In this document: positions 16,096-18,430 of the stretch, piece after piece
Layout: each line of letters opens with the position of its first letter
Position numbering within the stretch: the stretch's first letter is position 1
NCBI RefSeq assembly: GCF_041248615.1
Contig: NZ_CP158426.1
DNA from: Escherichia coli
Lineage (GTDB): Bacteria; Pseudomonadota; Gammaproteobacteria; Enterobacterales; Enterobacteriaceae
Direction: 5' to 3' (one strand)
DNA length: 64,000 nt
Position numbers and translations under genes: made by a program
The notes under the pieces: model-generated
Told to the model about the DNA's origin: nothing
Database searches by the model: none
What the model saw: only the letters and a program-made list of their open reading frames with translations

Positions 16096-16337
16096 ATCTA
16101 TACCTGCCAGAGAGTTCATAAATATCTCGCCCATATCATTTTTGAATCTATGGAGAGAAAAGTACCCTTGTCGAATCTTTAAAGAAAGCGTATTTACGCA
16201 TCACTTTTTATTTTTGCGAGGCGTTTTCCAGATATGATGTAACAGTTGCAGTTATTATAAGTTCAAGTAAAACAGCCTTGTATTAATACCAGAATAAGGG
16301 CATCTGTTTTTTTATATTCAAGAATGAAAAATTTTTG

Positions 16338-16556
16338 TCATTCCTTATGCTCCTTACACTGATCATCAACACCAACTACCTCCCCCTTTTGCCTGCCTCC
16401 CTTTGCTTTACGCACCGGGAATTGCTGACGTTCCAGATATTGCTCTACCGCTTCGCGTAAAATTGCAGATCGTGAAACCTTACGCCAGCCCCTAAGCTTG
16501 TTCAGCCGTTTAATTGCCTCTTCTGATAAATGAAGAAAAACCGTATTCATCGCCAT
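16338..16556 (-). CDS. yiiE: Ribbon-helix-helix (CopG/antitoxin-like) protein YiiE
   Basis: 72 aa MAMNTVFLHLSEEAIKRLNKLRGWRKVSRSAILREAVEQYLERQ...; its upstream region is a diverged duplicate of the yiiF upstream region. Confidence 0.8.
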   Translation of the reverse strand: MAMNTVFLHLSEEAIKRLNKLRGWRKVSRSAILREAVEQYLERQQFPVRKAKGGRQKGEVVGVDDQCKEHKE

Positions 16557-16974
16557 TACCACCACCTTACATATATTACTCATTAATGTATGTGCGAAAA
16601 TTACGCCGAAAAATCATTTAAAAAAAGCGGATTTTTGCATGTCGTTTTGTTTTTGCGAGACGGCATCCAAAGATAATGTAACAGTTGCAGTTATTTCAAT
16701 TGTTACTCAAAAATGGTTTAGTAATAACCCAGGATGGTTTATTACTTTTAATTAAGCGGGGACACATCTACAGAAAAGAAACAACAAATAATAAGAATGA
16801 ATTATGGGTGCTATAAATATTTTATATTCAAGAATATTTTTTTGATTGGGTGTTCATTTGCTTCATCAGGATGGTGTACCCGAAAAAGTCAGCAGCTTTA
16901 CCGCACCAGGGTTTAAGGTGAAATCTACCATTCATAACTGACCGGTCAGTGCCGCACCAACCGGTCTTTAATTG

Positions 16975-17253
16975 TTAGTAGTAGTAAATTTGTGGATAAC
17001 AGTCCGGGAACCAGACGATTCCTTCTGGATCATCCCCCTGCATTACCCGATGACATTGGCGTCGATCATCTGCGCGACGGCGAAGCGTAGTATAGAGCCG
17101 CTTCCATTCATGATCGCCCGGTGTACTGTAGTTTACCCAACAATCCATTGAAGGGTGACGCCATTTACCTGTAAGTGTTGGGATCCCTGAATGATTATGT
17201 GGCTTCGCTTTACCATTACGATCCCTATCTTTACGCGTATTAAGCGTGGACAT
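16975..17253 (-). CDS. Hypothetical small basic protein (92 aa), island-encoded
   Basis: ORF MSTLNTRKDRDRNGKAKPHNHSG...DCYPQIYYY preceded by ACAGGAG ribosome-binding site about 8 nt upstream; no family recognised. Confidence 0.45.
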   Translation of the reverse strand: MSTLNTRKDRDRNGKAKPHNHSGIPTLTGKWRHPSMDCWVNYSTPGDHEWKRLYTTLRRRADDRRQCHRVMQGDDPEGIVWFPDCYPQIYYY

Positions 17254-17314
17254 TTTTAGTCTCCTGTTAAGAGTTCTAAAAATGTGCTTCCTTAAAATAG
17301 TTCATCATTTTCCC

Positions 17315-17527
17315 TTAATTCGCATAGCGTGCTTTTGCACGAATTTCCGATACGCGGGGACCATCATGATAGCGTCGATGCCCACACATCCAACAAGAAC
17401 AAATACAGGGAGTACGAAAGCAAATACCTGATGCTTTTTTGCTTCCATCGCCTGCAGTGCGATAACGGCAGCGGATTTTTTTTAATCGCGCCATATGATG
17501 GCGACGTTCAGCACGATTACGGGTCAT
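17315..17527 (-). CDS. Hypothetical small Cys/Arg-rich protein (70 aa), island-encoded
   Basis: ORF MTRNRAERRHHMARLKKIRCRYR...CICSCWMCGHRRYHDG... preceded by AGGAG about 7 nt upstream; that ribosome-binding site lies inside a perfect 7-bp inverted repeat (aactcct/aggagtt); no family recognised. Confidence 0.4.
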   Translation of the reverse strand: MTRNRAERRHHMARLKKIRCRYRTAGDGSKKASGICFRTPCICSCWMCGHRRYHDGPRVSEIRAKARYAN

Positions 17528-17640
17528 AGTAAAACTCCTGAGCAGGCGGCACTATGCCGCTTTCATAGGAGTTCTGAATGCTGGTGCTTTCTGTATGGCA
17601 TAACCATGCCTCTAACGGTTAAGTGCCTGCAGCACATGTT
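17528..17640. repeat. Copy A of an approximately 110-bp direct repeat (ribosome-binding-site-sequestering hairpin element)
   Basis: aactcctgagcaggcggcactatgccgctttcataggagttctgaatgctggtgctttctgtatggc... is near-identical to 19352-19460; contains nested inverted repeats aactcct/aggagtt and gcggca/tgccgc. Confidence 0.7.
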
Positions 17641-17902
17641 GCGGATCATTGGCAATCGCTCGCAGCAAAGCCTTTGCAGGCCCAGTCGGTGAACGTCGCC
17701 CCTGCTCCCAGTTACGCAACGTGTCTACGCTTACGGAAATAAGTTCGGCAAATTTAGATTGTGACAACCCTGAAGCGCGGCGTATTTCTTTGATTTTCAT
17801 AGCATCAACTTCAAAAGTCCGTGAAGGGTGTCGCGTTCCTTCAATAATTTCATTCATCTGGGCCATGCTGTGAGTCAACCGCTCAAAAAGTGCCTTATCC
17901 AT
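17612..17902 (-). CDS. higA: HigA-2-like XRE-family HTH antitoxin
   Basis: 96 aa; C-terminal HTH (LSQSKFAELISVSVDTLRNWEQGRRSPTGPAKALLR); directly follows, and overlaps the stop of, the RelE/HigB-like toxin gene (toxin-first order, as in V. cholerae HigBA-2 from memory). Confidence 0.7.
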   Translation of the reverse strand: MDKALFERLTHSMAQMNEIIEGTRHPSRTFEVDAMKIKEIRRASGLSQSKFAELISVSVDTLRNWEQGRRSPTGPAKALLRAIANDPQHVLQALNR

Positions 17903-18214
17903 TTACCACCTCGTATTTAACAACCGGAGCATTGCTTTTTCCTGGGGAGACAGATCATCTTTAATACCCTTACGATAAATAAGCAGTAATCTGATCTCAT
18001 AATGTTTAACCTGATGAAAGTAAATAACCCTGACACCAGCACGTTTCCCCTTTCCTCCTGACACCCATCGAACCTTTCTTAACCCACCAGTTTCAGGTAT
18101 TACCTCACCATAGTCAGGATTCAAGGCCAGGAAAAACTGAAAACGACTGAATTCATCGTCGGTCAGCAGTTTTTGAACATCTTCAGTAAAAATTTCCGTT
18201 TCGATGAAGAGCAT
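17903..18214 (-). CDS. higB: HigB-2-like RelE/ParE-superfamily toxin
   Basis: 103 aa MLFIETEIFTEDVQKLLTDDEF...GGLRKVRWVSGGKGKRAGVRVIYF...; this pattern matches remembered HigB-2-type toxins; paired with a downstream HTH antitoxin. Confidence 0.7.
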   Translation of the reverse strand: MLFIETEIFTEDVQKLLTDDEFSRFQFFLALNPDYGEVIPETGGLRKVRWVSGGKGKRAGVRVIYFHQVKHYEIRLLLIYRKGIKDDLSPQEKAMLRLLNTRW

Positions 18215-18430
18215 AATTATACGCCATTGGCTTAGAGTAACAATCCTTTTTGTACGTCATTGACGTACCCTTGAAACCACTAGCTTACTGATAGTGCTCC
18301 AGCAAAACCACGTCTCTGCCGGGTTTGTCTTTACATTTGCGAGGCGCTTTCCAGATTTTTCACGCCCGTGAATTTCCCTGTATCCATCCAGCAAAAACGG
18401 GTGTATAAAACTGTACATTCATACAGCAAA

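Follow-up and report, generated by a model that had tools for sequence, protein, structure and literature searches.

A conserved, probably CRP-S-type motif upstream of yiiF, yiiE and a higB-like/nadS toxin–antitoxin pair in Escherichia coli

The locus and its three motif copies

The window, that is, the whole stretch of 64,000 nucleotides of Escherichia coli DNA analyzed here (contig NZ_CP158426.1 of assembly GCF_041248615.1), contains three copies of a motif of about 20 bp which lie upstream of the successive genes yiiF, yiiE and a higB-like toxin gene. The gene order is fdoH-fdoI-fdhE on the plus strand, followed on the minus strand by yiiF, yiiE, two small open reading frames (ORFs), nadS and the higB-like gene; to the right of the latter lie a divergent alpha/beta-hydrolase gene on the plus strand, transposase remnants and fabY. 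According to the RefSeq annotation of the identical record, yiiF (15877–16119, minus strand) encodes a small ribbon-helix-helix (RHH) protein of 80 aa with a weak Pfam RHH_3 match, and yiiE (16338–16556, minus strand) encodes its paralogue, a CopG/RHH-family protein of 72 aa with weak RelB-like and RHH matches. The two hypothetical small ORFs are located at 16975–17253 and 17315–17527, both on the minus strand. The higB-like gene (17903–18214, minus strand) is the first gene of its pair and encodes a RelE/ParE-type toxin candidate of 103 aa (phrog_5869), for which the only Pfam match is a weak one to RelE (PF06296, independent E-value 0.006); a frameshifted allele is named “type II toxin-antitoxin system RelE/ParE family toxin” in RefSeq. 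The start of nadS (17612–17902, minus strand) abuts the toxin stop codon, and its 96-aa product is antitoxin-like and of the helix-turn-helix (HTH) type, with a score of 60.4 bits against the NCBIfam model NadS (NF041265, cutoff 60) and an MqsA-family HTH match (2.6e-10). With two short genes that abut each other and an antitoxin-like, DNA-binding HTH product from one of them, the pair fits the layout of a type II toxin–antitoxin system. The divergent gene (18443–19351, plus strand) encodes an alpha/beta hydrolase resembling hormone-sensitive lipase or Aes-type esterases.

At this locus, K-12 and DH1 have no more than yiiF, yiiE and a short remnant ahead of fabY, and at least 80% of the 3.9-kb stretch is present in 1,270 of 5,424 E. 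coli genomes. Direct repeats of 99 nt (89% identity; 17533–17631 and 19350–19448) border the nadS/higB-like/hydrolase block on both sides; each repeat copy begins with the hairpin-forming sequence CTCCTGAGCAGGCGGCACTATGCCGCTTTCAYAGGAG, and the neighboring 70-aa ORF is missing in some E. coli strains (locus L004; handles with the prefix L denote the individual loci compared).

A first-pass annotation had placed the motif at about 16214, about 18338 and, in a diverged form, about 16652, upstream of yiiF, the higB-like gene and yiiE, respectively, and a pattern search finds it as described. The sequence TTTGCGAGGCG(T/C)TTTCCAGAT occurs at 16213–16233 and 18336–18356, with the variant at about 16652–16674. 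When the exact pattern TTTGCGAGGCGYTTTCCAGAT was searched across both strands of the window with up to three mismatches, the former two were the only matches, and 100 dinucleotide-preserving shuffles yielded none. Site 1, upstream of yiiF (16212–16233, minus strand), carries the exact pattern with a 16-bp core at 16215–16230 (TGGAAAACGCCTCGCA). Site 2, upstream of yiiE (16651–16674, minus strand; core 16654–16669, TGGATGCCGTCTCGCA), represents a diverged allele, which about 21% of E. coli genomes (about 1,137 of 5,367) possess; the yiiE copy of K-12 and DH1 is canonical (TTTGCGAGGCGTTTTCCAGAA). Site 3 lies in the divergent intergenic region between the higB-like and hydrolase genes (18335–18356, minus strand; core 18338–18353, TGGAAAGCGCCTCGCA). 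Measured from the start codons at 16119, 16556 and 18214, the motif spans 94–114 nt upstream of yiiF, 96–118 nt upstream of yiiE and 122–142 nt upstream of the higB-like gene, and the sites lie 95, 97 and 123 nt away, respectively.

The first two copies are part of a duplication. YiiF and YiiE are 38% identical over 71 aa (E 1e-10), and the DNA upstream of their genes is 81% identical over 79 nt at a spacing of 439 nt; the duplication of these upstream regions, initially put at about 150 bp, is borne out over the 79 nt, beyond which they can be aligned at lower identity. The further shared block reported to follow the first two copies is likewise present as an exact 20-nt sequence, ATGTAACAGTTGCAGTTATT, at 16237–16256 (distal to site 1) and 16676–16695. 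It is confined to the yiiF/yiiE duplication and occurs neither at the third copy, which has just about 27 nt with sharp edges in common with copies 1 and 2, nor at other motif loci. An exact 16-nt repeat, TTTTATATTCAAGAAT, at 16310–16325 and 16820–16835 (510 nt apart), with one copy immediately past the 3′ end of yiiE (gene strand) and the other upstream of the yiiE motif, probably belongs to the duplicated unit as well. The proposal that yiiE and yiiF are head-to-tail tandem duplicates of a small RHH gene together with its upstream region is therefore sound, given the protein identity and the co-duplicated flank, and the tandem duplication accounts for the site shared by the two genes.

Proposed assignment of the motif to the CRP-S class

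CRP-S sites are asymmetric CRP sites of low affinity, where transcriptional activation by CRP depends on the competence co-activator Sxy (TfoX). Read on the gene strand, the motif has the core TGGAA-N6-TCGCA, and its plus-strand form, TGCGA-N6-TTCCA, equals the published E. coli CRP-S consensus, which is given as the non-palindromic T4G5C6G7A8-N6-T15T16C17C18A19 in the quotation of Sinha 2009 by Sondberg et al. (2019; PMC6728893). Written as TT[TGCGA][GGCGYT][TTCCA]GAT on the plus strand, the motif agrees with this consensus at all ten core positions at site 1 (TGCGA-GGCGTT-TTCCA) and site 3, and at nine of ten at site 2 (TGCGA-GACGGC-ATCCA), with constant N6 spacing. The sequence of site 2, TTTGCGAGACGGCATCCAAAGAT, is best read in the register of the other copies, its 2-nt difference falling outside the core. 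Sxy-dependent activation requires both of the differing CRP-S half-sites (PMC6728893), and those of enterobacteria are never T6, carrying C6 or G6 only (Cameron and Redfield, 2006, PMC1635313); the window half-sites TGCGA (C6) and TGGAA (G6) follow this rule and contain no T6. The distances to the start codons are comparable to those of validated CRP-S sites. Relatives of the motif are found at K-12 regulon promoters, namely at comM/yifB (TGGAATGATGCTCGCAaaaa, core 10/10), comEA/ybaV (CTGAAGCCGCCTCGCAaaaa, 8/10, sharing GCCTCGCAAAA), hicA (TGGAATCTTCCTTCCT, 115 nt from the ATG) and higB (TGGAATCGCGCTTCCA). Furthermore, the 17-mer of site 3, CTGGAAAGCGCCTCGCA, is identical to a K-12 copy between yicR (radC) and dfp, a region present in 5,424 of 5,426 E. 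coli genomes.

The best explanation is that the motif is likely a CRP-S site, used by CRP together with Sxy, rather than an operator for YiiE and YiiF, which would probably place yiiF, yiiE and the neighboring higB-like/nadS pair in the Sxy regulon. CRP–Sxy binding and Sxy-dependent transcription are predicted here from sequence identity to validated and regulon CRP-S sites, from geometry, and from conservation and distribution. In seven orthologous loci of Enterobacter, Lelliottia, Pseudenterobacter and relatives, the 21 nt of the motif are near-invariant, with one A/G difference within the 17-mer, and a neighboring LexA-like box is retained, whereas the 15 nt between box and motif vary freely, which points to selection on the motif itself.

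Under the proposed mechanism, once Sxy has accumulated and cyclic AMP levels are high, CRP–Sxy would bind TGGAA-N6-TCGCA some 95–125 nt upstream of yiiF, yiiE and higB-like/nadS and switch on a distal promoter at each of the two genes and at the toxin-first operon. Site 3 may additionally serve the divergent hydrolase gene. The toxin–antitoxin module has its own copy of the same portable element. Nearer to the toxin gene it appears to possess a further promoter region that includes a palindromic operator, which would mirror the arrangement of hicAB with its P1 (CRP-S) and P2 (antitoxin-repressed). A perfect 8+1+8 palindrome, GTACGTCA-A-TGACGTAC, can be read directly at 18252–18268, 38–54 nt upstream of the toxin start, and is a candidate antitoxin operator. 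Between the palindrome and the toxin gene, a sigma-70-like promoter (TTGTTA-16-TATAAT, 10/12; 18216–18243, minus strand) has a −10 element ending 1 nt before the toxin ATG; by analogy with hicAB P2, its transcripts may start inside the toxin ORF and encode the antitoxin only. On the other side of the divergent region, a LexA-box-like sequence read at 18409–18428 (AACTGTACATTCATACAGCA) lies 15 nt upstream of the hydrolase start, and CTGTATGAATGTACAG differs from the K-12 sulA box CTGTATGGATGTACAG at one of 16 positions. Together, site 3 and this box echo the intergenic region between sulA and sxy.

Several observations weigh against the assignment as a CRP-S site. The motif, its spacer included, is far more uniform than the widely differing CRP-S sites known from the chromosome; something beyond recognition by CRP–Sxy may therefore be conserved, for instance because the copies descend from one promoter module or because the site takes part in recombination. 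At the distance from each site that is standard for class I or class II promoters, no −10 element was convincing. Since yiiE has been reported to be silenced by H-NS and induced by SlyA, other regulators also act here. Finally, the copy at K-12 yhcG has decayed to 14 of 17 positions (CAGGAAAGCTCTTCGCA; L137, 10702–10718), so that constraint on the motif is not universal. A literature search for the exact motif sequence returned no matches, and one for yiiE or yiiF together with Sxy returned nothing relevant, the regulon lists of Sinha 2009 being outside its reach. The window copies are probably new members of the CRP-S class, and K-12 yiiE and yiiF may already be on the published list of Sxy-induced genes.

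Distribution of the motif and rival readings

A BLAST search with 36 nt around the third copy revealed another copy at an unrelated locus, about 100 nt upstream of yhcG. In K-12 this motif unit is separated from gltD by gltF and yhcADEF; in many other E. coli strains the exact motif directly follows the gltD terminator (L003, 2501–2529). A pattern scan of one genome per species, for which all figures refer to the matches listed and hence to a sample rather than a census, identified at least 39 exact matches in Enterobacteriaceae (taxa taken from record titles), nearly all of them intergenic or at gene ends, in Enterobacter, Citrobacter, Lelliottia, Leclercia, Silvania, Phytobacter, Pluralibacter, Pseudenterobacter, Superficieibacter, E. 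albertii and E. coli. The longest ORF overlapping the match has a median length of 129 aa for these 39 matches as opposed to 445 aa for 83 matches in other taxa. Whenever the motif is followed by a gene on its own strand, it points toward that gene, which in most of the loci listed starts about 50–150 nt downstream; several loci lack such a gene. Among the genes downstream are those for a Gp49-like toxin with an HTH antitoxin, CcdA-CcdB, a RhuM-family protein and YhcG, as well as a yiiF-like RHH gene (Superficieibacter), a phosphotransferase system (PTS) transporter gene and dfp (E. coli). In viral contigs the motif occurs in the cargo region of P4-like satellites, before a lambdoid moron between the lysis and terminase genes, and near prophage ends.

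It had been left to a comparison with K-12 whether the third copy is native or island-borne. K-12 lacks this copy together with the toxin–antitoxin genes and the hydrolase gene; yet in Superficieibacter (L114) a hydrolase gene, the motif and a yiiF-like gene are directly adjacent, and the hydrolase-side copy therefore looks ancestral to the locus, with K-12 appearing to carry a deletion.

Further features were observed at individual loci. In three P4-like satellite prophages with an alpha-primase gene (L128, L131, and L134; IMG/VR contigs), the motif overlaps the 3′ end of a 115-aa ORF, and a 345-aa ORF similar to the RhuM-family protein of L067 follows about 95 nt downstream; we take the 115-aa ORF to be SymE-like and the adjoining variable ORFs to be defense-type cargo. 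In Enterobacter and relatives, a conserved block of about 70 nt (CAGGACGCCAATCCCGACACCTGATTTTGCAGGTGCGCCGCCATTTTATTACTGTGGATTTATCCAGCAAT), which includes a LexA-like box, is located near the 3′ end of clpA, about 110 nt upstream of the motif (L014, L058, L068, L073, L081, L085, and L090). Elsewhere the motif begins 0–17 nt past a stop codon, either that of yjbB (L050, L071, and L099) or that of a bcsZ-like gene (L072 and L127); a complementary segment (GCGAGGCG or GGCGCTTT) follows, so that the motif forms the 5′ arm of a terminator-like hairpin. In Leclercia adecarboxylata (L030) it lies about 261 nt upstream of a gene for a 935-aa protein that by eye looks similar to LevR-type sigma-54-dependent activators carrying PTS regulation domains.

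The first-pass annotation suggested an operator recognized by YiiE and YiiF, as orphan antitoxin-like regulators, or by the HigA-like NadS. In its favor, the motif precedes two RHH genes and a toxin–antitoxin operon, and antitoxins of the RHH and HTH types usually regulate their own genes. This reading is nevertheless not supported and is very unlikely: the motif displays neither a dyad nor tandem sub-repeats (as read by eye; a repeat analysis reported no inverted repeat either), it matches the CRP-S site of sxy, the identical 17-mer stands between yicR and dfp in K-12, and in other genera and phage satellites the motif precedes CcdAB, Gp49-like/HTH, RhuM, YhcG and PTS genes with no yiiE or yiiF nearby. 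Better operator candidates are the yiiE/yiiF-specific block AATAACTGCAACTGTTACAT and, for the toxin–antitoxin pair, the palindrome at 18252–18268. Of the related suggestion that the toxin–antitoxin module carries a related promoter/operator, the part concerning a shared cis element stands, but its role as an operator is not supported. Even less probable is a sigma-54 (−24/−12) promoter, to which the gene-strand sequence CTGGAAA(A/G)CGCCTCGCA bears some likeness in that TGG-N8-TCGCA has the GG-N10-GC spacing of glnAp2, also in the diverged yiiE allele, and in that the −12 element TCGC recurs in glnAp2 (41990–42005). A position weight matrix was built from 108 sites defined by chromatin immunoprecipitation sequencing (ChIP-seq), with bound sites at 9.1 bits (5th percentile) and 13.8 bits (median). 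The apparent glnAp2 promoter of the window (TGGCACAGTTTTCGCT, 41990–42005, plus strand), which served as an internal positive control, scores 14.6 bits, but the motif reaches only 4.6–5.4 bits and the yiiE allele 0.0, ranking 182nd to 1067th among the 17-mers of the window. These low scores lead to rejection of this reading, as do the K-12 ChIP-seq tables, neither of which (high or low stringency) lists a sigma-54 peak for yiiE, yiiF or dfp. A sigma-54 ChIP-exo paper does not mention yiiE, yiiF or dfp, nor does a paper on genomic SELEX with RpoN mention yiiE, yiiF or yiiD. That the motif is a neutral remnant left by the yiiE/yiiF duplication, and that its likeness upstream of the toxin–antitoxin pair is due to chance, is the least credible proposal of all: copies 1 and 2 do lie inside the duplicated 79-nt block, but the third shares the motif alone, with sharp edges, the shuffles yielded no match, and the exact recurrence of the motif in many genera, near-invariant beside variable flanks, refutes it. 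An Rfam scan of 13000–23000 (E ≤ 1) returned nothing relevant. Promoters of the sigma-70 (with the motif as −35 or −10 on either strand), sigma-E, sigma-32 and FecI types were also considered, and by eye no downstream element is conserved across the copies; an Ada box, marbox, Xer/dif site, integron attC site and insertion sequence ends did not fit.

Compared with a Citrobacter sp. Cu233 locus (L025), that of C. youngae (L037, 1922–3548 in motif orientation) contains 1,610 nt of inserted sequence, bordered by a 21-nt direct repeat of the motif, with genes for a Gp49-like toxin and an HTH antitoxin and a 153-aa ORF. The same Gp49-like cassette follows yjbB in another genus, where homology begins at the first base of the motif; the comparison also covered L011 and L108. 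From this, the site could be a promoter module that is portable and of common descent, and perhaps serves as a crossover point as well. As a tentative extension, it is possible, though not the more probable case, that a near-invariant CRP-S module of 17–21 bp, (T/C)CTGGAAAGCGCCTCGCA(A/G)A, is a portable promoter responsive to Sxy that moves with small accessory cassettes (toxin–antitoxin pairs, CcdAB, RhuM, YhcG-type nucleases, and RHH genes), at their 5′ edge, across Enterobacteriaceae, P4-like satellites and phage morons, and the repeated module may act as a crossover point in cassette gain and loss. The direct repeats in C. youngae and the homology between different chromosomal loci starting exactly at the first motif base would equally suit a motif that is mainly a junction sequence for the insertion and exchange of small accessory cassettes rather than a regulatory element, as would the arrays of motif and cassette in the window, L010 and L037 and the essentially all-or-none occurrence of the motif in 380 kb of related loci. 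Such a purely recombinational role is nevertheless improbable: the motif is missing from the right ends of the arrays, none of 5,424 E. coli genomes has an insertion at the copy between yicR and dfp, no recombinase turned up in association with the motif, and the copy at K-12 yhcG shows simple decay. Moreover, the motif equals a functionally tested transcription site, and the pattern is explained if each cassette carries its own CRP-S promoter.

Significance and comparison with known CRP-S systems

To our knowledge, neither yiiE nor yiiF has a known function or regulator, and we know of no natural signal that switches on Sxy in E. coli. Assignment of yiiE, yiiF, the island-borne toxin–antitoxin pair and possibly the SOS-boxed esterase to the CRP-S regulon can be tested directly and cheaply. 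Sxy control of toxin–antitoxin operons is already known, as Sxy overexpression in E. coli induces hicAB, higBA and chpSB (PMC6957337), and the present case adds to the evidence from these operons and from Haemophilus influenzae toxTA that competence regulons recruit toxin–antitoxin modules. The presence of the same site before unrelated cassettes in many genera and in phage satellites suggests, at the level of sequence, that Sxy control of mobile addiction and defense genes may be broader than described. If the module is indeed portable, a variable collection of addiction and defense genes would be coupled to the state of DNA uptake (Sxy) in the cell.

The closest known counterpart is the tested site of the K-12 sxy promoter (gene sense tattttCGGAAAGAGCCTCGCAaatttt / CGGAAAGAGCCTCGCAAA), which is identical to the window sequence CTGGAAAGCGCCTCGCAAA at 16 of 18 positions. 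In its plus form, TGCGA-GGCTCT-TTCCG, five of the six spacer bases are as in the window motif, and both have the half-sites TGCGA and TTCC(G/A), the N6 spacing and a promoter-proximal conserved half. They differ in the last core base, which is A in the window (as in the consensus) and G in sxy, and in one spacer base. The sxy site lies 128 nt from its ATG, similar to site 3 at about 120–130 nt, and both regions have a LexA box on the divergent side, belonging to sulA in K-12 and to the hydrolase gene in the window. The sxy site drives autoregulation of sxy and its function has been tested, whereas the window sites precede RHH and toxin–antitoxin genes and are known from their sequence.

In the E. 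coli hicAB operon, as reported from Turnbull and Gerdes (2017) in PMC6957337, the distal promoter P1 depends on CRP-S, while P2 at the toxin start is repressed by the antitoxin and produces antitoxin-only transcripts. hicAB and the window pair are alike in their toxin-first order, in a distal CRP-S site about 115–125 nt upstream of the toxin start, and in a proximal promoter-like element near the toxin start codon with a candidate antitoxin operator. However, their toxins and antitoxins come from unrelated families, both half-sites at hicA are of the TGGAA type, and a P2-like role in the window is putative. A second parallel is toxTA of H. influenzae (HI0660/HI0659), a CRP-S-driven, competence-regulated and toxin-first pair whose toxin is annotated as phage-related COG4679/ParE-family (PMC6957337). 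Both pairs are horizontally acquired, toxin-first and equipped with an HTH antitoxin behind a CRP-S site (in the window, a CRP-S-type site), and Gp49/COG4679-type toxins, as in toxTA, follow the same motif in Citrobacter and other Enterobacteriaceae. In contrast, the CRP-S sites of Pasteurellaceae are palindromic (TGCGA...TCGCA), and the window toxin belongs to another small family (weak RelE, phrog_5869).

The E. coli homologues of competence genes comM/yifB, comEA/ybaV and yicR/radC share the architecture TGGAA/CTGAA-N6-TCGCAAAA with the window sites, the copy between yicR and dfp being the identical 17-mer. CRP-S sites of these homologues were reportedly described by Cameron and Redfield in 2006 and by Sinha in 2009. 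They precede genes for DNA uptake and processing and vary in their spacer, whereas the copies in the window and in the accessory cassettes are near-invariant.

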